From NCBI GenBank assembly GCA_963742815.1, contig CAVUNJ010000008.1:84925-148924 (forward strand): 64,000 nucleotides of DNA. Direction: 5' to 3'. This stretch comes from an uncultured Actinomycetota bacterium. Lineage in GTDB: Bacteria > Actinomycetota > Actinomycetes > Propionibacteriales > Nocardioidaceae. A program made the translations under genes and the position numbers. The notes below the pieces were generated by a model. That model saw only the letters and a list, made by a program, of their open reading frames with translations, was not told the DNA's origin and made no database searches. Shown here piece after piece: positions 30,290-50,464 of this stretch; position 1 is the first letter of the stretch; every line of letters begins with the position of its first letter.

Positions 30290-33248
30290 CTTCTTCGCAC
30301 AAGAGCCAGCGGGTGCGCCCGCCGGTGGCGAACCCGGAGGTCGGCCTCCCGGCCGGGTCCCGCGCGGACCTCGTCGCCCCAGGCCGCTGTTGCTCACCGT
30401 CATCGTCGTCGGGCTGGTGGTCATCGGGTTCTCGCTGTTCGCGGGCATCTGGACCGACAAGCTGTGGTTCGGCAGCATCGGCTACAGCGAGGTGTTCTCG
30501 AAGCTGATCTGGACGCGCGTGCTGCTCTTCGCCGCATTCGGCGGGTTCATGGCCCTGGTGGTGGGGCTGAACCTGTTCCTCGCCTTCCGGCTCCGTCCGA
30601 TGTTCCGGCCACACTCGCCCGAGCAGGCCAACCTGGAGCGCTACCGCGAGGTCGTCACCCCGATGCGCCGACTGCTGCTGGTCGGCGTGAGCGTGATCTT
30701 CGGGATCTTCGCCGGAGTCTCGGCCACCGGCAAGTGGCGCACGTTCCTGCTCTGGACCAACCGCGAGGAGTTCGGCAAGGCCGACCCGTACTTCCACAAG
30801 GACATCGGCTTCTACGTCTTCAGTCTTCCCTGGCTGCACTTCCTCATCGATTTCGCGATGACCGCAGTCTTCACCGCCCTGCTGCTCGCGGCGGTCGTGC
30901 ACTACCTCTACGGCGGCATCCGGCTGCAGTCCGCGACGGACAAGGTCTCCGGCGCTGCGCAGGCGCAGCTCTCTGCGCTGTTCGGGGTGTTCCTGCTGCT
31001 CAAGGGCCTCGACTACTGGCTGGACCGGTTCGACCTGACCTCACAGACCGGCGGCATCGTCACCGGCATGACCTACACCCGTGACCATGCGGTGCTCCCG
31101 TCGAAGAACATCTTGATGTTCATCGCGGTGATCTGCGCGGTGCTGTTCTTTGCGAACATCCTGCGGCGCACCTGGTTGCTGCCCGGCGTCGGGCTGGCCT
31201 TGTTCGCTGTCTCGGCCGTCCTGCTCGGAGCAGTGTGGCCGGGCCTGATGCAGCGGTTCCAGGTCAAGCCCGACGAGCCGGACAAGGAAGCGCCGTACAT
31301 CAGCAAGAACATCCAGGCCACCAGATCCGCGTTCGGCCTCGAGGACACCACGGTCAGGAACTACGACGCCCAGACCAAGCTGTCGCAGGCGCAGCTCAGC
31401 ACCGACGCCGCCTCGCTTCCGGGCATCCGGCTGGTCGACCCCCAGCTGGTCTCGCGCACGTTCGAACAGCTCCAGCAGGTGCGCGGCTACTACAGCGTCC
31501 CGGGTGTGCTGGACGTCGACCGCTACCCGGTCAACGGCCAGGAGCGCGACGTCGTCATCGCGGCGCGCGAGATGCACCTCGAAGGCCTTCCCGACGGACA
31601 GAAGAAGTGGGCGAACGAGAAGACCGTCTACACCCACGGCTTCGGCCTGATCGCTGCCTTCGGCAACCAGCGCAACACTGGAGACCAGCCGGTTGGCAAC
31701 GACGGCGAGCCGGTGTGGGCCGAGGAGGACCTGCCGCCCCGGGGCGCGATCAGCGACTCGCAGGGCGATGACGGATACCGGCCGCAGATCTACTTCGGTG
31801 AGCAGAGCCCGCCGTACTCGATCGTCGGCAAGGCGCCCGGCGGCAACGACATCGAGCTCGACATCCCGCAGGGAGACGGCGATCCCGGCCAGTCCAAGAC
31901 CAACACCTACGAGGGCAAGGACGGCGTCGGTGTCGGCAACATCTTCCGCAAGCTGCTCTATGCCGTGCATTTCGGCGACGCCAACATCGTGCTGTCCTCG
32001 CGAGTCAACGAGAACAGCAAGATCCTCTACGACCGCTCGCCGCGCGAGCGGGTGCAGAAGGTCGCGCCCTGGCTGACCATGGACTCCGACGCACTGCCGG
32101 CAGTGGTCGACGGCAAGATCGTGTGGATCCTCGACGGCTACACCACCAGCGACAAGTACCCGCTGGCGGAGAAGGACTCGCTACAGGAGATGACCTCCGA
32201 CGCGGTCAACCCGCGTTCGGCGTACGCCACCTTGCCGACCGACCAGATCAACTACATGCGCAACGCGGTCAAGGCCACGGTCGATGCCTACGACGGCACT
32301 GTGAAGCTCTACGAGTGGGACACCAGCGACCCGATCCTGAAGGTCTGGAAGAAGGCGTTCCCGGGTGTCGTGGAGAGCAAGAGCGAGATTCCCGAGGCAC
32401 TGCTCGAGCACATGCGCTACCCCGAGGACCTGTTCAAGGTGCAGCGGGAGATGCTGGCGGCCTACCACGTGCTCGACCCGAAGACGTTCTACGAGGGCAA
32501 CGACCAGTGGGACGTTCCGCAGGACACCTCGGCCTCGACCCGCAAGCAGCCGCCGTACCGTCTCTCGGTCGCGACCACGTCGGGCGACGAGCCGGAGTTC
32601 TCGCTGACCAGTGTCTATGTCCCGCAGAAGAAGCAGAACCTCGCCTCCTACATGTCGGTGGGAGCCGACGCCGCCAAGCCGGACACCTACGGGAAGTTCC
32701 AGATCCTGCGGCTACCCGACAACACCCAGGTACCGGGGCCGGGTCAGATCGCCAACCAGTTCCAGCGTGACGACAAGGTGGCGCAGCAGCTGCTCGCCTT
32801 CAAGCGCGCGGACGTCACCGCCGAGTACGGCAACCTGCTCACCCTGCCGGTCGGCAGCGGGCTGCTCTACGTCCAGCCGCTGTACACCGTGCGCGAGGGG
32901 GGTGCCGGTAACTACCCGGGCCTGACCTTCGTCCTCGTCTCCTTCGGCAAGGAGGTCGGGATCGGGCCAACGCTCGCGGCCGCGCTGCAGGACGTGGTCT
33001 CACGTGCGGCCGGCACTGGCTCCACGCCGATCGACTCCGGCGGCGACCCGGACCCCGAGCCCGACTCTGGCGGAGACACGCAGAATCTTCCGGTTGCCGC
33101 GCTCAGGCTCCTGCAGCAGGCCGACCGCAAGTTCACCGAGGCCGACACTGCCCTGAAGGCAGGGGACCTGGAGGGCTACGCCAAGGCCGTCGACGAGGCC
33201 AGGGCCCTGGTGCAGCGGGCGCTCACCGCCAAGCCTCCGGCTCCCTAA
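30282..33248 (+). CDS. UPF0182 family membrane protein
   Basis: WTDKLWF, DP.FHKDIGFYVF.LP, YTHGFG, RVQKVAPWL..D, NYMRNAVKATVDAYDG, YPEDLFKVQR. Confidence 0.95.
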   Translation: MSDFFAQEPAGAPAGGEPGGRPPGRVPRGPRRPRPLLLTVIVVGLVVIGFSLFAGIWTDKLWFGSIGYSEVFSKLIWTRVLLFAAFGGFMALVVGLNLFLAFRLRPMFRPHSPEQANLERYREVVTPMRRLLLVGVSVIFGIFAGVSATGKWRTFLLWTNREEFGKADPYFHKDIGFYVFSLPWLHFLIDFAMTAVFTALLLAAVVHYLYGGIRLQSATDKVSGAAQAQLSALFGVFLLLKGLDYWLDRFDLTSQTGGIVTGMTYTRDHAVLPSKNILMFIAVICAVLFFANILRRTWLLPGVGLALFAVSAVLLGAVWPGLMQRFQVKPDEPDKEAPYISKNIQATRSAFGLEDTTVRNYDAQTKLSQAQLSTDAASLPGIRLVDPQLVSRTFEQLQQVRGYYSVPGVLDVDRYPVNGQERDVVIAAREMHLEGLPDGQKKWANEKTVYTHGFGLIAAFGNQRNTGDQPVGNDGEPVWAEEDLPPRGAISDSQGDDGYRPQIYFGEQSPPYSIVGKAPGGNDIELDIPQGDGDPGQSKTNTYEGKDGVGVGNIFRKLLYAVHFGDANIVLSSRVNENSKILYDRSPRERVQKVAPWLTMDSDALPAVVDGKIVWILDGYTTSDKYPLAEKDSLQEMTSDAVNPRSAYATLPTDQINYMRNAVKATVDAYDGTVKLYEWDTSDPILKVWKKAFPGVVESKSEIPEALLEHMRYPEDLFKVQREMLAAYHVLDPKTFYEGNDQWDVPQDTSASTRKQPPYRLSVATTSGDEPEFSLTSVYVPQKKQNLASYMSVGADAAKPDTYGKFQILRLPDNTQVPGPGQIANQFQRDDKVAQQLLAFKRADVTAEYGNLLTLPVGSGLLYVQPLYTVREGGAGNYPGLTFVLVSFGKEVGIGPTLAAALQDVVSRAAGTGSTPIDSGGDPDPEPDSGGDTQNLPVAALRLLQQADRKFTEADTALKAGDLEGYAKAVDEARALVQRALTAKPPAP

Positions 33249-34662
33249 GGTCGGGTCCCTGGCCCGCCTGACGCTGTCGCGCGAGCTCGGCGAGCCTTGC
33301 GAGTGCCTTCGGGAAGATCTCGGCGGGGGGCGTGACCAGCCCGGCACCTACCTGACCCACTCCCGCCAGGCGGCCGGCCATGCCGGTGTTGATCTGCGGG
33401 AGGATCCCGGTGCGGCACACGCGAGTGACGTCGATGCCACTCGGCACGCCCTGGAACTCCAGGGCCGGCACCGACCAGCGCGGGTTCTCACCGAGGGTGA
33501 TCTCGTGCATCCTCCGAGTGGTGGCGAGTGCGTCGGGAACCGAGCCACCGACCAGCCGGACGATCGCCGGCGCGGTGGCCATCGCGAACCCGCCGATCCC
33601 GGCGGTTTCGGTGATTGCCGAGTCGCCGATGTCCGGGTTGGCGTCGTCCGGCCCGTAGTCACCGAGGTAGAGGCCGTCGGCCACCTGGGCCGGTCCGGTG
33701 AACCACTCGTCGCCCGTGCCGGCGGTCTGGATGCCGAACTCGGTGCCGTTGCGTGACATCGCCACGACCATCGTCGAGCCCGGGGTGCCGCGGGCGGCGT
33801 CCAGCGCGAGCTTGCAGGCCGGCATCGCGAGGTTCAGGAAGAAGTGGTCGTTGCCGCCGACGAAGCGCAGACCGGCGGCGACGTCAGCCGCGTCCATCCC
33901 GCTGGTGACCATCGCGGGCGCGAGGTCGCGCAGGAGCATCAAGGTGCCCGCCCGGTTGCGGTTGTGCGCCTCGTCGCCCATCTGCAGCATCTGGGTGAGG
34001 ATGCCCGTCACGTCGACAGGTCCGCCATCCTCCACCGTCGTACGGACCGCTCGCTGCAGGAGCGGTCCGAGGACGTCGTTCATCCAGTGCAACCGGGTGA
34101 GCACCTCGGGGCCGTACGCGCCGTACCGCAGCACCTTGCCCAGGCCCTCGTTGAGTGAGCAGTGCGTACGACGCCCGGTGGTCGGGTCCTCGAGAACGAA
34201 CATCCACATGCTCGGCGTCACGACCCCGGCCATCGGTCCGACTGTGCTGCGGTGGTGGCAGGGCTCGAGCGAGACAGACGTACCCGCCTCGAAGAGAGCG
34301 ACAGCGTCCTCCGGGTCGGCGACGAGGCCTTCGAGGGCAGCCGATCCCATCAGGGCTCCCCGAAGCGGGCCAGAGGCCGTCGCCCAGCTGATCGGGGGCC
34401 CTGCATGCAGGAACTCTCCGGGCTGCAGATTGAGTACGTCGGATGCGGGCGCGACGTCGACCAGCTGGGCTGTCGTGCGGAGCAGGGCGGAGAGTGCACT
34501 CGAGTTCGCATCGCGGCGCAGCGGGTCGGCCGCCAGGGTGGCGAGGTCACGCTCGGTTCCCGGCATCGGGGGGCGCCAGTCGACCCTGGTGACGCCGACG
34601 GCCTGGGCGGAGACCGCGTCGGCGAAGAGGTCGGCGCCCACGTTGACGACATGTGCGGTCAT
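33223..34662 (-). CDS. DUF1116 protein, YlbE/AllG-like carbamoyltransferase subunit
   Basis: LHAGPPI, PCHH...VGPMAGV, LNEGLGKVLRYGA, MGDEAHNRN, FFLNLAM, NGTEFGI, PDIGDSAITE, PQINTG. Confidence 0.9.
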   Translation of the reverse strand: MTAHVVNVGADLFADAVSAQAVGVTRVDWRPPMPGTERDLATLAADPLRRDANSSALSALLRTTAQLVDVAPASDVLNLQPGEFLHAGPPISWATASGPLRGALMGSAALEGLVADPEDAVALFEAGTSVSLEPCHHRSTVGPMAGVVTPSMWMFVLEDPTTGRRTHCSLNEGLGKVLRYGAYGPEVLTRLHWMNDVLGPLLQRAVRTTVEDGGPVDVTGILTQMLQMGDEAHNRNRAGTLMLLRDLAPAMVTSGMDAADVAAGLRFVGGNDHFFLNLAMPACKLALDAARGTPGSTMVVAMSRNGTEFGIQTAGTGDEWFTGPAQVADGLYLGDYGPDDANPDIGDSAITETAGIGGFAMATAPAIVRLVGGSVPDALATTRRMHEITLGENPRWSVPALEFQGVPSGIDVTRVCRTGILPQINTGMAGRLAGVGQVGAGLVTPPAEIFPKALARLAELARQRQAGQGPDLREPEAWR

Positions 34663-36158
34663 GACGGCTGCCCCATCAGCTCAAGTGCTCGCCGGGTTGC
34701 CCCAGCATTGGAGAGGTGCACCTCGGCGCCGGCGTCGACCAGTAGCCCCACCTGGCGGACCAGGTCCTGCGGGTCGGCCCGGGTGCCGACCACCGTGACG
34801 ACAACCGGCTGACGGATCGACTCGATCGCCACGGCAAGCGTGGACGCCGGATCTGGCTCGGCGCCGTGGCCCAGCACGACGTCGAGCAGGATCACCGCAG
34901 TCTCGTCGTCGTACGCCACCTGGGCCAGGTGCTCCAGCCGCAGGCTGGGGTCGATCATCGGATGCGCCCGCCCCGCGGTCAGCGCGTCGTCGCCGAAATC
35001 GACCATGGTGTGGTGCGCCGGAGCCGGCTTGTGTGGGTCGAGCGTGAGGCCGCGGTCCAGGGGGATGTTGCTGTGGACCGGGCCGAGCTCGGCCGACGCG
35101 ATCAGCATCGCCTCGTCACACAGCGTGCCACCGACGAACAGGCCACGCAGCCAGCGACCCGATGAGTGAGCCGAGGCCGCCGTCAGCGGGGTGGCCGGTG
35201 CGCGCACCGGCCAGTCCGGTACTCCACGGCCGAGACTGGCCAGGACCGACTCGGCCGTGGCGGTGAGGTCGGGTTGGCCCGGCCCGAGCAGGGCGAGCCT
35301 GACAGGCGTCGAGAGCCCGGACGCCCGGGACCGGACTGCGTCGGCGACTTTCTCGTCGGGGGGCTTGGAGACCATCACGATGAGCTCCACATCGGGATCG
35401 GCGTCCAGCCGCTCCAGCGCTGCCAAGGTTGAGGCTCCGCCAATTTCCGCGGACAGGTCGCGCCCGCCCACGCCGAGTGCGGACTTCACGCCCACCTCGG
35501 CGTGGTCCAGCAGGGCGAGCAGCTGCTGGCAGCCGGTGCCGGAGGCGGCGACGATGCCCACCGGTCCGGGCTGCACGATGTTGGCGAAGCCGAGGCCGAT
35601 GCCGTCCACCACAGCGGTACCGCAGTCGGGGCCCATGACCAACAGCCCACGCTCGGACGCGACGCGCTTGAGCTCCACCTCCTGCTCGACCGGCACGTTG
35701 TCGCTGAAGATCATCACGTCACAACCGGCGTCGAGGGCATCCATCGCCTCCACCATCGCGTGAGCCCCGGGCACGGACACCAGCACGAGCCCGTCGGTGA
35801 CCCCCCGCAGCGCCGTGGCAGTCGTACGCGGCAGGGCCTGGTCGCGGGGTCCTTCCGCCGGGCTCTTCATGTCCTGCAGTGCGGCGTCGACGCCGGCCAG
35901 GGCGCGGTCGAGGGCCTCGGGGTCCTCCAGGCTTAAGGCGACGACCATGTCGTTGGGAGTGGCCTCCGGCGGGACGACGAAGCCCATCTGGCCGAGGACC
36001 TCGAGGTTGAGGGTGGTCGCCATCGCCACCTGCGCAGCGGCGACCCCGGCGATCCCCTGTACGACCCTGCTGACCTGGAGCAGCCTGACCGAGTCGGCGT
36101 ACGCACCCGGGCGCAGCTCGACGTGGACGAGCCCGTCTCCGCTCACGCTGGCACTCAC
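34659..36158 (-). CDS. fdrA: FdrA/AllF-like subunit (acyl-CoA synthetase fold)
   Basis: YADSV, LVSVPG, VMIFSDNV, MGPDCGT, AASGTG, SKPP, GLFVGGTLCDEA, DFGDD.LT.GRAHPMIDP; GTG 36158 overlaps the upstream stop. Confidence 0.9.
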   Translation of the reverse strand: MSASVSGDGLVHVELRPGAYADSVRLLQVSRVVQGIAGVAAAQVAMATTLNLEVLGQMGFVVPPEATPNDMVVALSLEDPEALDRALAGVDAALQDMKSPAEGPRDQALPRTTATALRGVTDGLVLVSVPGAHAMVEAMDALDAGCDVMIFSDNVPVEQEVELKRVASERGLLVMGPDCGTAVVDGIGLGFANIVQPGPVGIVAASGTGCQQLLALLDHAEVGVKSALGVGGRDLSAEIGGASTLAALERLDADPDVELIVMVSKPPDEKVADAVRSRASGLSTPVRLALLGPGQPDLTATAESVLASLGRGVPDWPVRAPATPLTAASAHSSGRWLRGLFVGGTLCDEAMLIASAELGPVHSNIPLDRGLTLDPHKPAPAHHTMVDFGDDALTAGRAHPMIDPSLRLEHLAQVAYDDETAVILLDVVLGHGAEPDPASTLAVAIESIRQPVVVTVVGTRADPQDLVRQVGLLVDAGAEVHLSNAGATRRALELMGQPS

Positions 36159-36853
36159 GCGGTAGCCCCGAGCGATGTGTCGATCTCCGAAGTGGCCCAG
36201 CGAGCACCCTCGAGCAGCCCGGCGCCGGTCGAGTGTCCGACCGCCAGCAAGTCTCTCTCGGCAGCGGTCTGTGCGGCCGAACCGATCGCCGTGATGTAGG
36301 TCGCGAACTGGGGGATCACCTCGCCGTACATGGCGCATTCGAGCAGGGTCGCGGACAGCACCGTGGTGTGCTCGCTCCTCGTCCGGATCGCCTCGTCGAC
36401 GTCGGGGGTGGGGATACCGGCCGCGCGGTGCAGGGCCAGCCAGCCGCAGAGCACGTCGTCACCCCGGGGTGTCAGCCCATCGCCGGCACCGACCAGGCGC
36501 CCGACAGTGCGGGTGTCCAGCGCGGCCACAGGCATGGGGTGGTGGGCGGGTCGCCGCGGGCGCCAGGCTGGTACGCCGACGTACCGCATCCTGCCGATCA
36601 CGAGCGGGACTCCCGAAAGGTGCAGCACGCCGGCCCGGATGTACGCCGGACCGGCTCCGAGCGCCGCCAGGTCGTCGGTGCGAGCGCCGAGTGCGCAAGG
36701 GACCTCGACGGCGTGCTGGTCGACGACCCCGACGCACCAGCCGCCCACGTCGACGTACACCGCGTGGGCGCCGCGGTGGAGGACCCGGACAGGCCCCGAT
36801 GGTGCTCTGCGCAACCGGGCGAAGACCCGGGGCGGGGCGCTGACTGGGACCAC
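36155..36853 (-). CDS. DUF2877 protein, YlbF/AllH-like
   Basis: LVGAGDGLTPRGDDVLCG, TTVLSATLL, VGHSTG. Confidence 0.82.
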   Translation of the reverse strand: MVPVSAPPRVFARLRRAPSGPVRVLHRGAHAVYVDVGGWCVGVVDQHAVEVPCALGARTDDLAALGAGPAYIRAGVLHLSGVPLVIGRMRYVGVPAWRPRRPAHHPMPVAALDTRTVGRLVGAGDGLTPRGDDVLCGWLALHRAAGIPTPDVDEAIRTRSEHTTVLSATLLECAMYGEVIPQFATYITAIGSAAQTAAERDLLAVGHSTGAGLLEGARWATSEIDTSLGATA

Positions 36854-36867
36854 GTCACCTCACGCTA

Positions 36868-37131
36868 GACCTGTGGACCCGGTATGCACCACGCCGTCCC
36901 CGTCACCCAATTACGCCGAGACGGCGCCAATGTCTCACCAGAACTCGGCGAGACGGCGCCAATGTCCCACCAGCGCGGGGACACAGGCGCCGTCTCGGCG
37001 GTCTATCGCGGGACACAAGCGCCGTCTCGGCGGTCTATCGCGGGACACAGGCGCCGTCTCGGTGGCGTATCGCGGGACACAAGCGCCGTCTCGGCATGTG
37101 CGTGGACCTGTGGACCCGGTATGCACCACGC
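36868..37131. repeat. REP/BIME-like array (2 + 4 inverted units, 32-bp period) bracketed by an exact 27-bp direct repeat
   Basis: GACCTGTGGACCCGGTATGCACCACGC at 36868-36894 and 37105-37131; units (G)CGAGACGGCGCCAATGTC at 36915 and 36947; CGCGGGACACA(G/A)GCGCCGTCTCGG at 36974, 37007, 37039 and 37071. Confidence 0.92.
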
Positions 37132-37221
37132 GGCGTTCCTGCGACATCCATCGCCCGCGACGCGGTGTCATGGATGACTAGGTTGTGGTTTCTCGGAACC
37201 ACCGAGTGAGGAGGAACTGCC

Positions 37222-38598
37222 ATGGCATCGATCTTCAAGTGGGACGTGGTCCATCCGGAGCCCGGTGAGGCGGTCGCGCCGCACCAGCGCCTGACCTGGG
37301 GACGAACAGCCGGGCTCGGCGCTCAGCACGTCGTAGCGATGTTCGGGGCGACGTTCGTCTTCCCGATCGTCATGGGTCTCGACCCCAACCTCGCGATCAT
37401 GTTCTCCGGCATCTGCACGATCCTGTTCCTGCTGATCTGCAGCAACAAGGTGCCCAGCTACCTCGGCACCAGCGCCTCCTTCGTGGCGAGCGTTGCCGCG
37501 ATCCGGTCCCAGGGAGGTGACTCCTCCGATGTCACCGGGGCGATCATGGTCGCCGGCATCGTCTTGATGCTGGTTGGCGTGCTCGTGCACTTCTCTGGCT
37601 CCGGGCTGATCCACAAGGTCCTGCCACCCGCTGTCACCGGAGCCGTGGTCATGCTGATCGGGTTCAACCTCGCTCCCGTGGTCGCCCAGATCTACTGGCC
37701 GCAGGACCAGTGGGTCGCCCTGCTGACCGCCGCCTTCATGGTCTGTGCCGCCGTGCTGTTCCCGGGATTCTGGTCGCGGATCGCGGTGTTCCTGGCGCTG
37801 ATCTTCGGCTACCTGCTGTCCTGGCTCCTCGACCTGGTCGCCGGCAGCATCAACTCGCCGAACTCGTTGAACAACTTCGAGGTGGAGGACCACGACCGCA
37901 TCACCTGGGGACTCGTGAAATCGGCAGACTGGATCGGCTTCCCCAGCGGCACCCTCGGAGACGGCGTCTCCGCCGTGCATGGACCGAGCTTCTCGATGAC
38001 CTTCATCCTGCTGGTCCTGCCCGGCGTGATCGCCCTCATCGCGGAGAACACCGGACACGTCAAGGCAGTCGCGGAGATGACCGGCAACGACCTCGACCCC
38101 TACATGGGCAGGGCCATCGGCGCGGACGGCTTCGCGACCGCGCTCGCGTCGGCGTTCGGCGGCTCGCCGACCACGACGTACGCCGAGAACATCGGCGTCA
38201 TGGGCGCCACCCGCGTCTACTCCACCGCTGCCTACTACGTGGCCGCAGGCGTGGCCATCCTGCTGGGGTTGTGCCCGAAGTTCGGGGCGATCGTCAGCGC
38301 CACCCCTGGTGGTGTACTCGGCGGGATCACCGTTGTGCTGTACGGCATGATCGGGCTGGTGGGCGCCAAGATCTGGGTCGAGAACCGGGTGGACTTCGGC
38401 AACCCGGTCAACCTGGTCGGGCTGGCCGCGGGTCTGGTTGCCGGAATCGGCGGCGTCACCTTGAAGATCACCGACGACTTCGAGCTCACCGGCATCGCCC
38501 TGGGGACGATCCTGGTGATCGTGTTCTACCACCTCGTGGCTCCGCGTCATTCCCCCGGCAGCGAGCGCGGCGCCGATGAGGTGACCAAGGCCCTGTGA
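37222..38598 (+). CDS. NCS2 (UraA-like) uracil/xanthine permease
   Basis: QHVVAMFG, PSYLGTS.SF, AENTGH, TTYAENIGV signature. Confidence 0.93.
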   Translation: MASIFKWDVVHPEPGEAVAPHQRLTWGRTAGLGAQHVVAMFGATFVFPIVMGLDPNLAIMFSGICTILFLLICSNKVPSYLGTSASFVASVAAIRSQGGDSSDVTGAIMVAGIVLMLVGVLVHFSGSGLIHKVLPPAVTGAVVMLIGFNLAPVVAQIYWPQDQWVALLTAAFMVCAAVLFPGFWSRIAVFLALIFGYLLSWLLDLVAGSINSPNSLNNFEVEDHDRITWGLVKSADWIGFPSGTLGDGVSAVHGPSFSMTFILLVLPGVIALIAENTGHVKAVAEMTGNDLDPYMGRAIGADGFATALASAFGGSPTTTYAENIGVMGATRVYSTAAYYVAAGVAILLGLCPKFGAIVSATPGGVLGGITVVLYGMIGLVGAKIWVENRVDFGNPVNLVGLAAGLVAGIGGVTLKITDDFELTGIALGTILVIVFYHLVAPRHSPGSERGADEVTKAL

Positions 38599-39461
38599 AG
38601 CCAGCACCGTTCGACTATCTCCGGCCCGGGTCGCTCGCCGATGCCACAGCGGCCCTGGCCGGGGAGCCGAACGCGAAGGTGCTGGCCGGTGGCCAGAGCC
38701 TGGTCCCGCTGCTGTCGATGCGGCTCGCAGCGCCCAGCATGCTCGTTGACATCAACGGGCTGCCTGGCCTGTCCGGCATCGTGGTGACTGATCAGGGCGT
38801 GCGGATCGGCGCCCTGGCCCGGCACGCGGACGTCCTGGCCTCGGCCGACGTACGCCGGGTCCAGCCGCTTGTGTCGATGGCGCTGGCACGCGTGGCACAC
38901 GCCACGATCCGCAACCGGGGCACCACGGTCGGCTCGATCGTGCACGCTGACGCCGCTGCCGAGATGCCGGTCGTGCTCTCGCTGCTCGGTGGCTCGGTCG
39001 ACGTCGAGTCCAGCGCTGGAACGCGCGCCATCGATGCCGCCGAGCTCTTCGTCGGTCCGTTGGAGACCTCGCTGCATCACGACGAGATCGCGGTCTCGGC
39101 CTTCTTCCCCGCCCTCGAGGTCGGGGCCGGCGTCGCGTTCGACGAGGTCGCGCGTCGGCACGGGGACTACGCGCTCTGCGGCGTCGCGGCGAAGGTGCGC
39201 CTTGAGGATGATGCCGTTGTCGAGGCCAGGGTGGGCTACCTCTCGGTCAACGAGGTCCCGACCGTGGTGGACCTGACTGCTGCTCTCGAGCAGGGCATGG
39301 ACGACTCGACGCTCGCCGAGGCCGGCGAGCGGGCGCTGTCGTCGCTCGACCCGGCGGCCGACATCCACGCGACGGCTGCCTACCGCGCACAGCTCGTGCG
39401 CGTGCTGACGGCGAGAGTGCTGCGTTCGGCGTACGACGATGCGCTGCGGAGGTCGCGATGA
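38595..39461 (+). CDS. Molybdenum hydroxylase FAD subunit (CoxM/XdhB-like)
   Basis: MKPAPFDY, AGGQSLVP, IRNRGT.VGS, RRHGDYAL. Confidence 0.93.
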   Translation: MKPAPFDYLRPGSLADATAALAGEPNAKVLAGGQSLVPLLSMRLAAPSMLVDINGLPGLSGIVVTDQGVRIGALARHADVLASADVRRVQPLVSMALARVAHATIRNRGTTVGSIVHADAAAEMPVVLSLLGGSVDVESSAGTRAIDAAELFVGPLETSLHHDEIAVSAFFPALEVGAGVAFDEVARRHGDYALCGVAAKVRLEDDAVVEARVGYLSVNEVPTVVDLTAALEQGMDDSTLAEAGERALSSLDPAADIHATAAYRAQLVRVLTARVLRSAYDDALRRSR

Positions 39462-42333: not shown

Positions 42334-42959
42334 TGAGGTTCACCGGCGAATCCGTCCTGCACGCATCCATCGACCAGGTGTGGGATGCCCTGCTCGACCC
42401 CGCCGTCCTGGTCCGCACGATTCCGGGCTGCGAGCGGCTCGAGTCGGCCGGTCAGGACGCCTACTCGATGACCGTCACGGCCGGGGTGGCCGCGATCCGG
42501 GGTACCTACTCGGGATCCTGTGTCCTCTCCGACCTCGAGCGACACGAGTCGCTGCTGATGAAGCTCCAGGGATCCGGTGCGCCCGGCACGGTCGGTGCCG
42601 AGGTGAAGGTCGCCTTCCGCGACGGTGGTGACGACACCACCGTCGTCGCCTACGAGGCCGATGCCATCGTCGGCGGCATGGTTGGTGGGGTTGGCCAGAG
42701 GATGCTCACCAGCGTTTCCCGCCGGATGGCCGGCGAGTTCTTCGGCAACGTCGACGCGGTCCTGACGGGGACCGAGAAGAGGCCCGAAGTCGGGGTCTCG
42801 TCGCGCGCGTCCGGCGAAGGACAGGTCTTCACCGCGCCGGCCCCCGCGGCCGGCCAGGCACCCGTCAGCCCGGACTTCCTGAAGGGAGTTGCCGTGGGTG
42901 CCGGACTGGTGCTGCTCGGCGTCGCCGCGGGAGTCGCGCTGGGAGGGCGACGCCGGTGA
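42333..42959 (+). CDS. CoxG/SRPBCC-family accessory protein
   Basis: VWDALLDP.VL...IPGC, VGGMVGGVGQRML, C-terminal TM. Confidence 0.88.
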   Translation: MRFTGESVLHASIDQVWDALLDPAVLVRTIPGCERLESAGQDAYSMTVTAGVAAIRGTYSGSCVLSDLERHESLLMKLQGSGAPGTVGAEVKVAFRDGGDDTTVVAYEADAIVGGMVGGVGQRMLTSVSRRMAGEFFGNVDAVLTGTEKRPEVGVSSRASGEGQVFTAPAPAAGQAPVSPDFLKGVAVGAGLVLLGVAAGVALGGRRR

Positions 42960-44353
42960 CTGGCGCCAACCTCACGGTCGAGTCGACCGCCCACGAGATG
43001 GCGCGGGCGGTTCGCGAGCGCCAGATCTCCGCGCGGGAGCTGCTCGACCTCCATCTGACCCGGATCGAAGAGCGCAACGGCGAGGTCAACGCCATCGTCT
43101 CGCTGGACACCGACCGGGCTCGCGCCTCTGCGGCGGCCGTCGACGAGGCAACGGTCTCCGGCGGCCCGTTGGGCCCGCTGCACGGCCTGCCGTTCGCAGT
43201 GAAGGACACGCATCTGGTGGCCGGCTGGCGCACCACCTTCGGCTCGCCCCTCCATGCCGACAACGTCTCGGACGCCGACTCGCTGGCCGTCGAGCGGATC
43301 AGGGGCGCGGGCGTCGTACTGCTCGGCAGGACGAACGTGCCGGAGTTCGCGGCCGGGTCCCACACCTTCAACACGATCTTCGGGACCACGCGCAACCCGG
43401 CCGACCTGGGCCGGTCCGCGGGTGGGTCCAGCGGGGGAGCGGCGGCGGCCCTGGCCGCAGGCATGGTGCCGCTGGCAGACGGTTCGGACATGGGCGGCTC
43501 GTTGCGCAACCCTGCTTCGTTCTGCGGGGTAGTCGGACTGCGGCCATCGTTGGGACGCGTCCCGGACTGGCCTGCCCTCAACCACTGGGAGACGCTCGGG
43601 GTCACCGGACCGATGGCGCGCAACGTGGGTGACCTGGCGCTGCTGCTCTCGGTGATGGCGGGGCCAGATCCACGTGCGCCTCAGGCACTCGGCGACCCCG
43701 GCGCCACCTTCGCCACACCCGAAGCAGCCTCCCTGCAGGGGCTGCGTGTTGCCTCGTCGGTCGATCTCGGCGGTGCCTTCGAGGTCGACCACGAGGTGGA
43801 AGCTCTGCACGAGGTCGCCGCCAAGGTCTTCAGCAGCCACGGCGCGCGACTGTCCGCGGCGTACCCGGACCTCGTCGAGGCCGAGGACACCTTCCGAACC
43901 CTGCGCGCCTGGAACTTCTGGGCTGTGCACGGGCCGGCGCTGGCAGCGAACCCGGACGCCTTCAAGCCCTCCCTCGCGGAGAACATCCGGGCGGGGGAGT
44001 CGCTGACCGGTGCGGATGTCGCCCGCGCCTACCGGAAGCGCACCGCACTGTCGCATCGGATGCGCGAGTTCTTCACGTCGTACGACGTGCTGGTCCTGCC
44101 GGTGTCGCAGGTGCCTCCGTTCCCGGCCGACCAGGAGTACCCCACCGAGATCAACGGTCGGCCGATGAGCTCCTACCTTGACTGGATGCGCTCGGCGTAC
44201 TTCATCTCCGCGACCGGGTGCCCGGCGATCTCGTTGCCTGCCGGTCACACGAGCGACGGACTGCCGGTCGGTGTGCAGATCGTCGGGCCGCACGGCTCGG
44301 ACCTGCGGTTGCTCGAGATCGCTGCCGGCTTCGAGGCCGCGGTGGCCACATGA
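42956..44353 (+). CDS. Amidase-signature family amidase
   Basis: GPLHGLPFAVKD (Lys), GGSSGG, GSDMGGSLRNPAS (Ser-cisSer-Lys triad). Confidence 0.93.
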   Translation: MTGANLTVESTAHEMARAVRERQISARELLDLHLTRIEERNGEVNAIVSLDTDRARASAAAVDEATVSGGPLGPLHGLPFAVKDTHLVAGWRTTFGSPLHADNVSDADSLAVERIRGAGVVLLGRTNVPEFAAGSHTFNTIFGTTRNPADLGRSAGGSSGGAAAALAAGMVPLADGSDMGGSLRNPASFCGVVGLRPSLGRVPDWPALNHWETLGVTGPMARNVGDLALLLSVMAGPDPRAPQALGDPGATFATPEAASLQGLRVASSVDLGGAFEVDHEVEALHEVAAKVFSSHGARLSAAYPDLVEAEDTFRTLRAWNFWAVHGPALAANPDAFKPSLAENIRAGESLTGADVARAYRKRTALSHRMREFFTSYDVLVLPVSQVPPFPADQEYPTEINGRPMSSYLDWMRSAYFISATGCPAISLPAGHTSDGLPVGVQIVGPHGSDLRLLEIAAGFEAAVAT

Positions 44354-46437
44354 TGAGCATCAGGATCGGCATCGACACCGGCGGCACCTTCACCGACGTC
44401 GTCGCCTTCGACGAGGTGTCGGGCGAGATCGTGACGACCAAGACCCCGTCCACGCCGGACAACCCGGCTGACGGGTTCCTGGCCGGCATCGACAAGGTCC
44501 TCGGTCTCCTCGGGGCCGACGCGAGCGCAATCGAGGCTGTCTGCCACGGCACCACGGTGGCGACCAACCAGCTGCTCGAGGGGAAGGTCGAGCGGCTCGG
44601 CTTCATCACCACCGCTGGTTACGAGGCGATGCTCGAGATCGCACGTCAGTCAGTGCCCGACGGCTACGGCAACTCCTACTTCTGGGTCAAGCCCAGTCGC
44701 ATCGTCCCGCGCGACCTGGTCAAGGGCGTCGGTGGCCGGCTCGACTTCACCGGGGCGGAGGTGCGTAGCTTCGACGAGGTCTCTGCCCGCAACGCGGCCC
44801 GCTGGTTCCGGGACCAGGGCATCACCACCCTCGGGGTCTGTTTCCTGCACTCCTACGCCAACCCCGCTCACGAGGAGCGGATGCGAGAGGTGCTCGCCGA
44901 GGAGCACCCGGAGGCGGTGGTCTCGCTCAGCAGCGAGGTGCTCCGCGAGTATCGCGAGTACGAGCGGGCGATGACGACGCTGGTCGACGCGGCGGTCAAG
45001 CCGCGGCTCTCGGCGTACGTCACGAACATCAAGCGCCGGCTCGGATCTCTCGACGACCGCACGATCCCGTTCTACGTGATGAAGTCCAACGGCGGTGTGC
45101 TCTCGGCGGACGAGGTGGTGCACCAGCCGATCACCACGGTGCTCTCGGGACCGGCAGCGGGAGCCCTCGGCGCCGCGCTGATCGCCAAGGTCGCCGGTTT
45201 CGACAAGGTGCTGACCAGTGACGGCGGGGGCACCTCGACCGATGTCTCGGTCGTCATCGACGGCGAGCCCACCCTGACGACGGAGGGCACCGTCGGTGCC
45301 TTCCCGTCCAAGATCCCGATGATCGACGTGGTCACCGTCGGCGCGGGCGGGGGCTCCATCGCCTGGCTCTCACCAGAGGGCACCCTCAAGGTAGGACCCC
45401 ACTCTGCCGGTGCCGACCCCGGGCCGCTCTGCTACGCGAAGGGTGGCACTGATGTCACCATCACGGACGCACACGTCTTCCTCGGCCGGATCCCGCCGCA
45501 CCTGCTGGGTGGCGAAATCCCCCTCGACGTCGACGCCGGGCGCAACGGCATCGAGGCGCTGGCTGAGAAGCTCGGGTTCGCGCCAGAGGCGTGTGCGGCC
45601 GGCGTACTGGAGATCTCGGCCTGGAACCAGGCCAACGCGCTGCGCCAGGTCACCGTGAAGCGCGGTCTCGACGTCCGCGACTTCACGCTGACCACCTTCG
45701 GTGGCTCCGGCTCGCTGTTGCTGTGCCGCCTGATGGACGTGCTCGGCATCAGGTCCGTGCTGGTGCCGCCGAACCCCGGCAACGTCTCCGCCTTCGGCCT
45801 GCTGACTGTCGACGTCAAGAACGACTACGTCCGCACCCACGTCGCGCTGGACGAGACACTCGAGCCGGCCGCGGTCGTCTCGATCTACGACGCGCTCACC
45901 GACCAGGCGCGGGCCGCGCTCACCCAGGAGGGCTTCGCGGACACCGACCACGAGTTCGTGCGTACCGCCGACCTGCGCTACTTCGGCCAGGCCTTCGAGG
46001 TCCGGGTCGCCGTACCCGAGGACACCGTTGACGACCAGGTGCTCAGGGCGGTCGCCGGCAGGTTCCACGCCGAGCACCGCGCGCTCTACGGCTACGACTT
46101 CGCCGAGGACCCCACCCAGCAGGTCGAGTGGGTGAACCTCCGTGTCTCCGGCATCGGCCCGATCCGGCGCCCGGAGATCCAGAAGCAGGCGACCGCTGGG
46201 TCAACCGCAGCCACCACGACCGGCAAGCGACCGGTCTGCTTCGACCCTGAGTCGGGGTACGTCGAGACCCCGGTGCTGTGGCGGCCCGACCTGGTGCCCG
46301 GGGCGGTCGTGACCGGCCCCGCGATCATCGAGGAGTTCGGCTCCACCGTCCCGCTGCACCCCGGCTTCACCGCCCGGATCGACGACTACCTGAACATCAT
46401 CGTCGCGAGGGAGCCCAGAGGACGGGGGAGCGCATGA
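44350..46437 (+). CDS. Hydantoinase/oxoprolinase A subunit (HyuA-like)
   Basis: GIDTGGTFTD, HGTTVATN, SGPAAG, DGGGTSTD, GAGGGSIA, SAGADPGP; ATG 44350 overlaps the amidase stop. Confidence 0.93.
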   Translation: MMSIRIGIDTGGTFTDVVAFDEVSGEIVTTKTPSTPDNPADGFLAGIDKVLGLLGADASAIEAVCHGTTVATNQLLEGKVERLGFITTAGYEAMLEIARQSVPDGYGNSYFWVKPSRIVPRDLVKGVGGRLDFTGAEVRSFDEVSARNAARWFRDQGITTLGVCFLHSYANPAHEERMREVLAEEHPEAVVSLSSEVLREYREYERAMTTLVDAAVKPRLSAYVTNIKRRLGSLDDRTIPFYVMKSNGGVLSADEVVHQPITTVLSGPAAGALGAALIAKVAGFDKVLTSDGGGTSTDVSVVIDGEPTLTTEGTVGAFPSKIPMIDVVTVGAGGGSIAWLSPEGTLKVGPHSAGADPGPLCYAKGGTDVTITDAHVFLGRIPPHLLGGEIPLDVDAGRNGIEALAEKLGFAPEACAAGVLEISAWNQANALRQVTVKRGLDVRDFTLTTFGGSGSLLLCRLMDVLGIRSVLVPPNPGNVSAFGLLTVDVKNDYVRTHVALDETLEPAAVVSIYDALTDQARAALTQEGFADTDHEFVRTADLRYFGQAFEVRVAVPEDTVDDQVLRAVAGRFHAEHRALYGYDFAEDPTQQVEWVNLRVSGIGPIRRPEIQKQATAGSTAATTTGKRPVCFDPESGYVETPVLWRPDLVPGAVVTGPAIIEEFGSTVPLHPGFTARIDDYLNIIVAREPRGRGSA

Positions 46438-48364
46438 GCGAGAGCCGAAGGGCGCCCGACGCAGTTCCCGTTCGGCATGCTGACGGCGGATGCCGGCGCA
46501 GGTGCCGACCCCGTGCTCGTCGAGATCGTCCAGGGTTCCCTGGCCTCGGTCGAGATGGAGGTCGAGACCGCGATCGGACGTACGTCGCGCAGCCCGATGA
46601 TCCGCGACGCCCACGACTTCCGGGCCGGGATCCACGACCGGCTGCTGCGCAAGCTGACCGGGCGGTCCTACTCGGCGTTGGTGCACCCGGTCGCGCGCGA
46701 CTTCCCCATCGAGGAGATGCAGGAGGGAGACGTCTTCTTCCACAACGACGTCTACCGCTCCGAGGGCGGCATCGGCCACCTCCCGGACCTCTGTGTCACA
46801 GTTCCGGTCCTCGCCGGACCGTCGACTGAGCGTCGCGTGGTGGCCTTCGTGCAGGCGTTCGGCCACCACGACGACATCGGCGGCGCGGTCCCCGGGTCGA
46901 TGCCCTCCCACGCGACCAGCGTGTTCGAGGAAGGCCTGATGGTTCCGCCGATCCGGCTCTGGGACGCCGGCGTACCCAACAAGGCCGCTCTGGCCATCAT
47001 GACCCGCAACTCCCGGATGCCGGAGAGCCTTGCGGCCGACCTCGACGCCGAGTGCTCGGCCTGCCTGATGGGTGCCCGCCGCCTCGGCGAGCTGTTCGAC
47101 CGCTACGGCGTGGACACGGTCGAGTCCTGCTTCGACGCGATCATCGACCGTACGACGACGACCTACCGTCGCGAGATCCTCTCCCAGATTCCCGTGGGGG
47201 AGTGGGTGTGGGAGGACTACGCCGAGCACGACGGTGTCGAGGTGCCGAAGCTGCACACCCAGCGGATCTCGATGACCCGTACGCCGGCCGATGATCCGGA
47301 CGGCGAGCGGCTGATCCTCGACTTCGCGGGCACCGGCCCGCAGGCCAGGGGCCCGATCAACCACTGCGGCAACTACAGCGACGGGGTGTTCCTGAAGAAG
47401 TGGCTCGCTCCGATCCTGCGCAATCTCGCCGAGAGCCCGGAGCGGATGGCCGAGCTCGACGTCAACGAGGGGATCGTGCCGCTGATCGAGATGCGGTTCC
47501 CACCGCCGGGGACGCTGCTCACGCCGGTCTTCCCGGCGCCCACCAACGCGCGCACGTTCGTGATCCTGCGACTGCTCGGGGTGCTGGCGGGTGTCGTGGC
47601 GAAAGCCGTCGACGGGCGGATGCCGGCCGACCAGGAGACGATCCGCTACACCGGCGTCTACGGGGAGGACCTGGACGGACGCCCCTACCTGATGCGCGAG
47701 GTGCTCGGTGGCGGATCCGGTGGGCGCTACTACGCCGACGGCGAGGACACGATCCACGTCGTACCCGACTCCCGGAACCTGCCCAGCGAGTTCACCGAGT
47801 CGCGCTTCCCTTTGCGCGTGGAAAGCCTCGGCCTCGCGACGGACTCCGGCGGGGCCGGGCAGTTCCGCGGGGGCCTCGGCTACGAGAAGCACATCCGGAT
47901 GCTCAAGGACGGGCACTTCATGTCGATCGCCGACCGATCCATCCTGGCGTGCTGGGGCGTGAAGGGCGGGTTGGCGGGCAAGCCGTTCGAGGTTGTCATC
48001 GACCCGGGCGGGCCGAACGAGCGGGCGGTCGACGCGCTCGCGGACGACGAGCCGGTCAGGGCCGGCGAGGTGATCCGGATCCGGACGACCGGCGGCGGCG
48101 GCTGGGGCAACCCCCTCGAGCGCGATCCGCACCTCGTCGTCCGGGACGTGGTGTGGCGCAAGGTCTCGCCGGAGGCGGCGATTGACGGCGTACGGCGTCG
48201 TGCTCATCGGCTCGCTTGCGGACGACTCGCTCGGGTACGACGCGGACGCGACCGTGGCCGAGAGGGCCGCCAGACCGGCCGCCTCCGAGGCGTTCTTCGA
48301 CCGCGGACCGGGTTACGCGCGTCTCTCCGGCGGGGCGACGTACGCCGAGGTCGACCTGCCATGA
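46434..48364 (+). pseudogene. Hydantoinase B/oxoprolinase subunit (HyuB-like) with two apparent +1 insertions
   Basis: Core motifs RTSRSP.IRD, NDVY..GG.HLPD, H..DIGG..PGS, TTGGGGWG. Removing one C at 46455-46457 joins the coupled ATG 46434 to the core (MSESRRAPTQFPFG). Removing A48181 restores EAALTAYGVVL...DLP-stop at 48364. Confidence 0.75.
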
Positions 48365-49359
48365 GGGTCCTGTTCGCCCTGGGTGGCAACGCGATGACGA
48401 ACCCGGACGGCCGCGCGCGGCCCGAGGACCAGATCGCTGCGGCGAGGATCGCAGCCGAGTCGGTGGCCGAGGTCGTCGCGCAGGGCGTGGACGTGCTCAT
48501 CACGCATGGCAACGGACCGCAGGTCGGGAACCTGCTGGTGAAGAACGAGATCGCCGCCGCCGTCGTACCTCCGGTGCCGCTGGACTGGTGCGGCGCCCAG
48601 ACCCAGGCAACGCTGGGCTTCGTGCTGATGAACGCCCTGGACGACGCCCTGCGGGCACGGGGCGTCGAGCGGCCAACGGCCACCGTCGTCACGCGCACCC
48701 TCGTCGCCTTGGACGACCCGGGGTTCAGCCACCCGACGAAACCGATCGGCCGCCACCTGCCACAGGCCGAGGCGCAGGTGCTGGTCGAGCACGGTGAAAC
48801 CTGGGAGGACCGTGGCGAGAAGGGCTGGCGCCGGATGGTTGCGTCTCCCGAGCCGCTCGAGATCGTCGACGCCCCTGCAATCGGCGCGCTCGTCGACTCC
48901 GGATTTGTCGTGATCGCCAACGGCGGCGGCGGGATCCCGGTCGTGTTCCGTGAGGAAGGGTTCCTGGACGGCGTCGAGGCCGTGATCGACAAGGACCTCG
49001 GTGCGGCCCTGCTCGCGGACACGGTGGGGGTCGACGTGCTGGTGATCGTCACCGACGTACCGCAGGCGGTGCTGCACTTCGGCACACCCGACGCCACCCC
49101 GATCGGCCGGGTCACGGTGACCGAGCTCCGGAGGCTCGCCACCGAGGGGCACTTCGCCAGCGGGTCCATGGGGCCCAAGGTGGACGCGGCCTGCCGCTTC
49201 GTTGAACGCGGCGGAACCCGAGCCGTGATCACCAGCCTGAGCAACATCGTCGACGCGGTGCCCGGAAACCTCGGCACCGTCGTACTGCCTGAGCCACCCC
49301 CACCCTCCAACAACCCGCCATCGAGCCACCCAACAGAGACGACACCAGGAGTGCAGTGA
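48361..49359 (+). CDS. arcC: Carbamate kinase
   Basis: [57 protein letters not shown]; own ATG 48361 in an ATGA overlap. Confidence 0.92.
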
Positions 49360-49360
49360 C

Positions 49361-50464
49361 ATGCCAGACGCCATCGAAGTACGCAAGGTCCCGATCCATT
49401 CGGTCGCCGACGCCAGCGAGCTCGCCAAGCTGATCGACGACGGCGTGATGCACGCGGACCGGGTGATCGCCATCATCGGCAAGACCGAGGGCAACGGCGG
49501 CGTCAACGACTACACCCGGATCATCGCGGACCGTGCGTTCCGCGAGGTGCTCGTCGACAAGGGAGCTCCGGCCGAGCAGGTGAAGCAGATCCCGATCGTG
49601 TGGTCCGGAGGCACCGACGGGGTGATCAGCCCGCACGCCACGATCTTCGCGACGGTGGCACCGGAGGATGCCGTGGCGTCCGATGAGCCGCGGCTCACCG
49701 TGGGATTCGCGATGAGCGAGGTGCTGCTCCCCGAAGACATCGGGCGGGTGGCGATGATCGAGAAGGTCGCCGCGGCGACGAAGGACGCGATGGAGAAGGC
49801 AGGGATCACGGACCCGGCCGAGGTGCACTACGTCCAGACCAAGACGCCGCTGCTGACGGTGCACACCATCCGCGACGCCAAGTCCCGGGGCAAGACGGTG
49901 TGGACCGAGCACACCCACGAGTCGATGGACCTCTCCAACGGGACGACGGCTCTCGGGATCGGCGTCGCGCTGGGCGAGATCGAGATGCCGACCGACGCCG
50001 ACGTGATGCACGACCGCTCCCTGTTCTCGGCCGTGGCGTCCTGTTCGTCGGGTGTGGAGCTCGACCAGGCTCAGGTGGTCGTGGTCGGCAACGCGCCCGG
50101 TGTCGGCGGGCGTTACCGGATCGGGCACTCGGTGATGAAGGACGCGCTCGACGCGGACGGCATCTGGGCGGCGATCAAGGACGCGGGTCTGGACCTCCCG
50201 GAGCGACCGCACACCTCCGATCTCGAAGACCGGCTGGTGAACGTCTTCCTCAAGTGCGAGGTCTCGCAGGATGGCGTCGTCCGCGGGCGGCGTAACGCGA
50301 TGCTCGACGACTCCGACGTGCACTGGCACCGCCAGATCAAGGCAGCCGTGGGCGGCGTCACGGCCGCCGTGACCGGCGACCCCGCCGTCTTCGTCTCGGT
50401 CTCGGCGGCGCACCAGGGTCCCGACGGCGGCGGCCCGGTTGCCGCGATCGTCGACCTCGGCTGA
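49361..50464 (+). CDS. bar: Barbiturase (AtzD/barbiturase cyclic amide hydrolase family)
   Basis: [39 protein letters not shown]-terminal [10 protein letters not shown] (barbiturase type, versus SGGxEHQGP in cyanuric acid hydrolases). Confidence 0.92.

Follow-up and report, generated by a model that had tools for sequence, protein, structure and literature searches.

Here we describe a gene cluster at positions 33223-50464 of a 64,000-nucleotide stretch of contig CAVUNJ010000008.1, from an uncultured actinobacterium of the Nocardioidaceae. We call this whole stretch the window. The cluster is predicted to encode the oxidative breakdown of uracil, and we propose that it probably removes the ureido group of the opened ring by phosphorolysis and not by hydrolysis. 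Textbooks have described the oxidative pyrimidine pathway since the 1950s, and to our knowledge its genes beyond barbiturase are essentially unassigned. The host genome (4.5 Mb, 68% GC) belongs to a Nocardioides-like actinobacterium, whose closest relatives are Nocardioides species and soil metagenome-assembled genomes (MAGs). An earlier note, made from the letters of the window, had listed a set of genes running from a permease to a barbiturase, with a DUF2877-FdrA-DUF1116 set diverging from it. Pfam and NCBIfam confirmed all of these genes at their coordinates. The features are the following.

33223-34662, minus strand: allG-like gene, DUF1116 subunit of an AllFGH-type carbamoyltransferase (479 amino acids (aa); PF06545, 309 bits)
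34659-36158, minus strand: allF-like gene, FdrA, the CoA-ligase-fold subunit (about 499 aa from a GTG at 36158; PF00549)
36155-36853, minus strand: allH-like gene, DUF2877 subunit (232 aa; PF11392, 72 bits)
36854-37221, no strand: divergent promoter region between allH and the permease gene (368-bp gap)
37222-38598, plus strand: NCS2 nucleobase permease, RutG/uracil-permease-like (PF00860, 235 bits; TIGR03616 RutG, 334 bits, below cut-off)
38595-39461, plus strand: FAD subunit of a molybdenum (Mo) hydroxylase (Pfam)
39458-39949, plus strand: 2Fe-2S subunit of the Mo hydroxylase (Pfam)
39946-42333, plus strand: large subunit of the Mo hydroxylase (Pfam; NF040766, 1500 bits; motif PYRGAGR)
42333-42959, plus strand: CoxG-like SRPBCC protein (PF06240, 80.6 bits)
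42956-44353, plus strand: amidase-signature (AS) amidase, called the window type below (PF01425, 354 bits; NF005686, 479 bits, above cut-off)
44350-46437, plus strand: hyuA, A subunit of an ATP-dependent hydantoinase/oxoprolinase (PF05378, PF01968, PF19278)
46477-48364, plus strand: hyuB, the B subunit (PF02538, 441 bits)
48361-49359, plus strand: carbamate kinase, CK (NF009007, 308 bits, cut-off 266)
49361-50464, plus strand: barbiturase, Bar, encoded by bar (PF09663, 477 bits; TIGR02714, 587 bits)

The three genes on the minus strand overlap each other (33223-36853) and carry FdrA, DUF1116 and DUF2877, so that the AllFGH gene set is complete. The start of allF is likely the GTG at 36158, which gives a GTGA overlap with the allH stop. 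The operon on the plus strand was counted as eleven translationally coupled genes, ten of whose products, from the permease to Bar, are named above. Most of its junctions are ATGA or GTGA overlaps of 1-4 nt or lie at most 1 nt apart, as with the hyuA ATG at 44350, which overlaps the amidase stop; the exception is the gap of 39 nt between HyuA and HyuB.

As assembled, HyuB and CK form one open reading frame (ORF) of 960 aa, in which a single extra A near 48181 shifts the frame. This A is not present in any relative compared, nor in a 99%-identical short-read soil contig, and it is probably an indel of the long-read assembly, so HyuB and CK are to be read as separate, coupled genes. Without it, the canonical HyuB tail (…YGVVL…FFDRGPGY…) runs to a TGA overlapping the ATG of CK. 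A HyuB-CK fusion protein was rejected on these grounds, and also because its 60-residue 'linker' is an Arg-rich out-of-frame sequence. A fusion of CK and barbiturase, suggested by the many genomes with an open frame of about 690 aa, was rejected as well: in the one locus checked (genome G172), CK and bar lie in different frames. These long frames look like the stop-free upstream sequence that is typical of high-GC DNA.

The barbiturase scored 679 bits to the crystallised enzyme of Rhodococcus erythropolis (PDB: 5hwe) and at most 323 bits to cyanuric acid hydrolases, and by this comparison it is a true barbiturase and not a cyanuric acid hydrolase. CK reached 337 bits against TIGR00746, below the cut-off of 358. 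The large subunit of the Mo hydroxylase belongs to a family named 'aerobic carbon-monoxide dehydrogenase large subunit' (group 5; NF040766). Large subunits of this family are kept in barbiturase clusters, which suggests that the Mo hydroxylase (38595-42333) is a candidate uracil/thymine dehydrogenase and that the CO-dehydrogenase name of the family is wrong. We found no experimental gene assignment for uracil/thymine dehydrogenase in the searchable papers. The solved structures closest to HyuAB are the N-methylhydantoinases 7hk5 and 6yra, with acetone and acetophenone carboxylases ranking behind them, and the sequences place HyuA and HyuB in the ATP-dependent lactam-hydrolase branch with its two-subunit A/B architecture.

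In E. coli, AllFGH (FdrA-YlbE-YlbF, an oxamate carbamoyltransferase) phosphorolyses oxalurate and is paired with the carbamate kinase AllK (PMC11326118, PMC9843812). The window proteins are 38% (AllF), 45% (AllG, compared with YlbE) and 33% (AllH, compared with the C-terminal domain of E. coli AllH) identical to these subunits, and the window AllF scored 379.7 bits against the FdrA model NF004760, under its cut-off of 433. The AllGs linked to Bar, including that of the genome G186, form one clade (support 98/96), apart from E. coli AllG and from the paralogues in actinobacterial allF-allG-CK operons (allFGK operons); some genomes carry both a Bar-linked AllG and an allFGK-operon paralogue. The identities, the score below cut-off and the separate AllG clade together place the window AllFGH in the same family as E. 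coli AllFGH and in a different orthogroup.

The two systems have the same three families side by side, and the window CK is 40% identical to AllK. Their proposed chemistry is also alike, namely the phosphorolysis of an N-acylurea to an amide and carbamoyl phosphate, followed by the formation of ATP. The gene order differs, being allH-allF-allG in the window and allF-allG-allH-allK in E. coli. Unlike E. coli allK, the window CK gene lies 12 kb from allHFG and is coupled to barbiturase. The surrounding genes are pyrimidine genes without allD in the window, whereas in E. coli they are allantoin genes, and the hosts are an aerobic soil actinobacterium and an anaerobically growing enterobacterium, respectively. 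The substrate proposed for the window enzyme would be ureidomalonate, which is one CH2 longer than the oxalurate of E. coli. Furthermore, the boundary between AllF and AllG appears to be shifted between the two, with about 40 residues of the E. coli AllF C-terminus (VINIGLRSFALE…) aligning with the N-terminus of the window AllG (VVNVGADLFADA…). The alignment of this shifted segment had a z of about 4.5 against shuffles (E. coli L106:16681-19617; window 33223-34662 and 34659-36158).

To see how widely these genes occur together, we used a sample of 401 evenly drawn Actinomycetes genomes, in which a Bar orthologue was called at 67% identity or more and an AllG of the Bar-linked clade at 58% or more, with fragments counted. 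Bar is found in 90 and AllG in 91 of these genomes. Both are present in 86 genomes, Bar only in four, AllG only in five and neither in 306. The idea in the earlier note that barbiturase genes co-occur with DUF1116, FdrA and DUF2877 genes therefore held, with AllG in 86 of the 90 Bar-positive genomes and both absent from 306 of the 311 others. Within the window's own family, the 11 genomes with Bar are the same 11 that have AllG, and the two are both absent from ten genomes. In 81 of the 90 Bar-positive genomes, bar has a CK orthologue as its immediate neighbour. Barbiturase with CK and AllFGH is the majority arrangement among the sampled Actinomycetes and not a rare side branch.

We also compared loci of relatives. 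Genes were called there by a crude caller based on GC at third codon positions (GC3), which merged or truncated some ORFs and was unfit at a 63%-GC locus (G294), so the gene maps of the relatives are approximate. CK is positioned directly upstream of bar in 77 out of 80 related loci, and the remaining three loci are truncated by the end of their contig. All 40 genomes searched from these CK-bar loci had an AllG orthologue, at 62-94% identity; in about 37 of the 40 it lies on the same contig as bar, 10-48 kb off and on the same side, as judged from coordinate lists compared by eye. The extended maps consist of two modules. The left one holds allG-allF-allH, divergent from an optional PucR-type regulator gene, the permease, the Mo hydroxylase, CoxG and the amidase. 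The right one holds HyuA-HyuB, a set of variable genes and CK-Bar, where the variable genes are NmrA-like, cytidine-deaminase-like, CoA-transferase III, carboxyltransferase, short-chain dehydrogenase/reductase (SDR) and aldehyde dehydrogenase genes.

Besides this common layout there are two variants. In Intrasporangiaceae a CN-hydrolase takes the slot of the AS amidase, which looks like a non-orthologous displacement of the amide-hydrolysis step. A 310-aa CN-hydrolase of the nitrilase superfamily follows CoxG in Janibacter (L083:1653-2585) and also in Humibacillus and Terrabacter. The second variant is the compact locus of G186 (L095, G186:C2:244000-263999), in which allH-allF-allG, a 140-aa ORF and CK diverge from permease-bar. 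It also holds distant Mo-hydroxylase genes, and its bar is 72% identical.

The organism in which the urea-forming pathway was described lacks this arrangement. As far as the work of Soong et al. (2001, 2002) is summarised in PMC3758960, R. erythropolis JCM 3132 has uracil/thymine dehydrogenase, barbiturase and ureidomalonase, and converts uracil via barbiturate and ureidomalonate to urea and malonate. We reached the R. erythropolis-type cluster through the barbiturase of R. qingshengii, which is 99% identical to 5hwe. The order in R. qingshengii is PucR, carboxyltransferase, CoA-transferase III, PucR and uracil phosphoribosyltransferase (UPRTase), followed by Bar, an AS amidase, an aminotransferase, a permease, three Mo-hydroxylase genes, a CoxG-like gene, HyuA, HyuB and an NmrA-like gene. 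There is no CK and no AllFG in this cluster. Much is shared with the window: the R. qingshengii proteins are 84% (Bar), 61% (large subunit of the Mo hydroxylase), 67% (HyuA) and 81% (HyuB) identical to those of the window, and the CoxG-like proteins are homologous. CoxG follows the large subunit in both cluster types. HyuAB is part of the core of both, with HyuB 76-96% identical, and the window's relatives also share the NmrA-like, CoA-transferase III, carboxyltransferase and PucR regulator genes. The R. erythropolis-group cluster differs by the UPRTase upstream of bar, by an amidase of another orthogroup and an aminotransferase directly downstream of it, and by its reported products urea and malonate, whereas the window carries CK and AllHFG along with an amidase of the other type, and lacks urease.

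In a sample of 251 genomes of the Rhodococcus family, 12 carry Bar. Nine of these 12 have neither AllG nor CK, and all nine are 100% complete; four of the nine have a bar 98-99% identical to that of R. erythropolis, with both genes absent genome-wide. The other three have AllG together with a CK adjacent to bar. CK and AllFG thus come and go as a unit, and the urea-forming organism is of the type without them. One genus (g73, GC 74%) that had been taken for Rhodococcus was dropped, as the identity of its Bar to 5hwe is only about 82%.

The amidases follow the same division. In the three mapped clusters without CK and AllFG (R. qingshengii, G649 and G657) an amidase comes directly after bar, and these amidases (R. 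qingshengii L109:3891-5369) form one orthogroup with internal identities of 78-82%. No amidase lies downstream of bar in the window or in the 80 CK-bar loci. The window-type amidases form an orthogroup of their own, which is 55-87% identical internally and 39-42% identical to the bar-coupled amidases of Rhodococcus. The window's genome has no amidase of the Rhodococcus type; the best match there is the window amidase itself, at 40%. G457, a genome of the Rhodococcus family with CK and AllFG, has an allH-allF-allG-amidase operon, in which an amidase of the window type is positioned directly downstream of allG. The two orthogroups fit two fates of ureidomalonate, which would be hydrolysed to urea and malonate by the Rhodococcus type, and would first lose its carbamoyl group and then be hydrolysed as malonamate by the window type. 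We propose the window-type amidase as a malonamidase, an assignment made from its gene context, and the AS amidase directly after bar as a candidate for the orphan ureidomalonase (EC 3.5.1.95). A gene for ureidomalonase seems never to have been identified, since the searchable papers cite this enzyme only as an activity. The earlier note had started from an isochorismatase-fold ureidomalonase; we found no support for such a fold in these papers, and the comparison of clusters suggests an AS amidase instead.

Taken together, we consider it fairly probable that this uracil-breakdown cluster uses a phosphorolytic and not a hydrolytic removal of the ureido group, in which ureidomalonate and phosphate give malonamate and carbamoyl phosphate, CK forms ATP and the amidase releases malonate. 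By homology, the NCS2 permease would import the base, the three-subunit Mo hydroxylase, with CoxG, would oxidise uracil and probably also thymine to the barbiturate level, and barbiturase would open the ring to give ureidomalonate. AllH-AllF-AllG would then split ureidomalonate with phosphate into malonamate and carbamoyl phosphate. CK would convert carbamoyl phosphate and ADP to ATP, NH3 and CO2, and the window-type amidase would convert malonamate to malonate and NH3. Malonate could be turned into malonyl-CoA and acetyl-CoA by a CoA-transferase III and carboxyltransferase (AccD/AccA-like) pair, which is found on contig C2 (645682-648242) of the window's genome and inside the barbiturase cluster of many relatives. 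This pair is probably a malonate activation and decarboxylation module, and its position in the relatives' clusters agrees with malonate being the carbon product. The two nitrogens of the ring would be released as ammonia, with no urea formed, in a genome without urease. The R. erythropolis group, which lacks CK and AllFG and has the other amidase after bar, fits the urea-forming ureidomalonase described there.

The same sequence of ureidomalonate phosphorolysis, CK and amidase had been put forward in the earlier note. It is favoured by the co-occurrence, by the way CK and AllG vary together within the Rhodococcus family, by the division of the amidases into two orthogroups and by the G457 operon, whereas the substrate of the trimer is still inferred. 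The note had also described the branch as ATP-conserving; the ATP-consuming HyuAB encoded in the same operon could cancel the gain, so the term may overstate the balance.

A wider version of this proposal has, in our judgement, about an even chance of being right. According to it, the FdrA/DUF1116/DUF2877 complexes would be general N-acylurea phosphorylases, and the Bar-linked clade would be a ureidomalonate:phosphate (malonamate) carbamoyltransferase. With CK and a dedicated malonamidase this enzyme would form the main oxidative pyrimidine route in Actinomycetes (about 95% of the sampled Bar-positive genomes), and the urea route would be the less common variant, that of the R. erythropolis group, with the AS amidase after bar as its EC 3.5.1.95.

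There are several observations that weigh against phosphorolysis of ureidomalonate. Ureidomalonate as the substrate of the Bar-linked AllFGH-like trimer is inferred from context. The Fisher test for the co-occurrence of Bar and AllG (P about 1e-75) was calculated without a correction for phylogeny. Nine of the 90 Bar-positive genomes, G146 and G112 among them, have no CK orthologue beside bar. Three of the Bar-only genomes (G386, G400 and G077; 75-97% complete) have CK-bar and no match to AllF or AllG; incompleteness, from which about four misses would be expected, is not proven to explain them. In the fourth, G409, the surroundings of bar are unrelated and CK is absent. In its physical linkage allHFG is tied to the permease/Mo-hydroxylase module and not to bar. 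The two modules lie 2.7 Mb from each other in N. tweenelious, with allHFG staying with the permease and hydroxylase and CK with bar, and in some families they are 68-130 kb apart. The compact locus of G186 has neither HyuAB nor an amidase within the 20 kb examined. The window amidase is only distantly similar to malonamidase E2 (82 bits), and GatA, urethanases and AtzE score higher, so a specific similarity to malonamidase E2 is weak. An anticorrelation with urease, as reported for enterobacterial allFGH, was not seen: urease is found in 22 of the 86 genomes with both Bar and AllG and in 151 of all 401, which is no strong anticorrelation, and the pattern is true of the window's genome only. 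Finally, the conserved, ATP-consuming HyuAB has no step in the scheme, which leaves the net gain of ATP uncertain. HyuAB may open 5-methylbarbiturate or another cyclic amide, and the release of nitrogen without urea may be a more important benefit than ATP.

Among the alternatives, the one that survives best is that the AllFGH-like enzyme has kept its specificity for oxalurate (or another ureide) and serves a general salvage of ureide nitrogen that is co-regulated with pyrimidine catabolism, while the amidase of the cluster hydrolyses ureidomalonate. Membership in the AllFGH family, at 38-45% identity to the E. coli proteins, would agree with this, as would the tie of allHFG to the permease/Mo-hydroxylase module when the cluster splits, and the window amidase is, after all, 40% identical to the bar-coupled amidase of Rhodococcus. 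The window's genome also has allB-, allE- and allC-like allantoin genes. These are located on other contigs (C11 and C13), however, and we found no homologue of allA or of allD, the oxalurate-forming dehydrogenase, in this genome. It has a single AllFG set, with one copy of AllG, and a single CK, which adjoins bar and not the allantoin genes. E. coli AllG falls outside the Bar-linked AllG clade, and in some genomes with a Bar-linked AllG there are allFGK-operon paralogues too. Moreover, the hydrolytic route would yield urea, and no urease alpha gene is found in the window's genome; the earlier note had claimed a lack of urease for the cluster, and this is correct for the genome as well. Without a substrate that depends on barbiturase, it is difficult to account for the 86/4/5/306 distribution and for the loss of CK and AllG together in Rhodococcus. 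We therefore regard oxalurate specificity as unlikely.

It is less likely still that CK and AllFGH serve only a side branch, such as the ureido-methylmalonate derived from thymine or a further oxidised barbiturate derivative, with the main flux from uracil running hydrolytically via the amidase. Uracil/thymine dehydrogenase also yields 5-methylbarbiturate, and the accessory genes (HyuAB, NmrA-like and, in relatives, cytidine-deaminase-like) hint at several substrates. In 81 of the 90 genomes, though, the translational coupling of CK is to barbiturase itself. The window-type amidase belongs to a different orthogroup than the one found where urea formation was demonstrated, and the lack of urease in the window's genome speaks against this alternative as it does against the former.

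HyuAB instead of AllFGH could be the source of carbamoyl phosphate, by an ATP-dependent phosphorylation of the ureido carbonyl, with CK regenerating the ATP. Members of the HyuAB family are known to phosphorylate amide or enol oxygens, and hyuA-hyuB-CK-bar is contiguous and coupled in the window. HyuAB is kept, however, in the R. qingshengii/erythropolis clusters, and four sampled genomes of that group have no CK at all, so that HyuAB persists where CK is absent and is unlikely to be the carbamoyl-phosphate source. Such a cycle would also be ATP-neutral and would leave the strict co-variation of AllFG and CK unexplained, and we give it a very low probability. Lowest of all we place the FdrA-like complex as an ADP-forming acyl-CoA synthetase, for example for malonate, with a CK that is unrelated or anabolic and traps carbamate as carbamoyl phosphate: FdrA was long annotated as an acyl-CoA synthetase, AllF has the CoA-ligase fold (PF00549) and malonate needs activation somewhere in the pathway, yet carbamoyl transfer is what the only biochemical data on this family show (PMC11326118), the clusters are already accompanied by a dedicated CoA-transferase III/carboxyltransferase pair, and the complex co-varies strictly with CK.

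The proposed ureidomalonate phosphorolysis can be compared with further known systems. Catabolic pathways that combine a transcarbamylase with a carbamate kinase are the arginine deiminase pathway (with ornithine transcarbamylase, OTC), the agmatine deiminase pathway (with putrescine transcarbamylase) and E. coli ygeW-yqeA. In these routes, as in the one proposed here, a carbamoyl or ureido group is passed to phosphate and carbamate kinase gains one ATP. They use enzymes of the aspartate/ornithine transcarbamylase (ATCase/OTCase) fold that act on N-carbamoyl amines, whereas the window has the unrelated FdrA/DUF1116/DUF2877 complex, which would act on an N-acylurea. Another example is allFGHK beside triuret and biuret genes in MAGs of comammox Nitrospira and ammonia-oxidising archaea, which its authors read as oxalurate degradation (PMC12625717). 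There too, AllFGH and CK are next to genes for acylurea-type nitrogen compounds and outside an allantoin context; in contrast to the window, no ring-opening enzyme of the barbiturase or AtzD family was found in those MAGs (PMC12625717). Full-text literature searches, which covered journals other than subscription journals, returned no description of the present cluster or of a ureidomalonate/malonamate carbamoyltransferase. What we predict would be a known enzyme family acting on a new substrate, in a variant of a known pathway.

If ureidomalonate is split in this way, most barbiturase-bearing actinobacteria skip the textbook last step and split the ureido group with phosphate. They would gain ATP and set free the two nitrogens of the ring as ammonia, with neither urea nor the nickel enzyme urease involved. 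The recently identified AllFGH family would acquire a second substrate and, in the abundant Actinomycetes of soils, a much broader ecological role. Annotations in wide use, among them 'CO dehydrogenase large subunit', 'acyl-CoA synthetase FdrA' and 'cyanuric acid amidohydrolase', would be corrected. For two orphan activities, uracil/thymine dehydrogenase and ureidomalonase, the comparison provides candidate genes as well. All steps of the pathway are testable with substrates that can be purchased, namely barbiturate, malonamate and carbamoyl phosphate.

In 8 out of 10 relatives compared, a PucR-type regulator gene (GGDEF_2 and HTH_30 domains) is found between allH and the permease gene. It is missing from this position in the window and in G001, and the window's genome has no PucR orthologue elsewhere; the best match, at 37%, lies beside purine genes on contig C11. 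The divergent promoter region of the window contains a REP-like inverted array (36868-37131) of 32-nt units, two of which point one way and three to four the other. This array sits in an exact direct duplication of 27 bp, whose copies are 237 bp apart. A truncation of allH by the REP-like insertion was ruled out, as the gene is full length compared with its homologues in G012 and G009.

The genes that flank the cluster are unrelated to it: a UPF0182 gene lies upstream, and genes for an adenylate cyclase and a TetR regulator lie downstream. The cyclase gene (HAMP and adenylate/guanylate cyclase domains, 50478-52016) lies between bar and the TetR gene in the window; in G001, the closest relative, bar is followed directly by the TetR gene.

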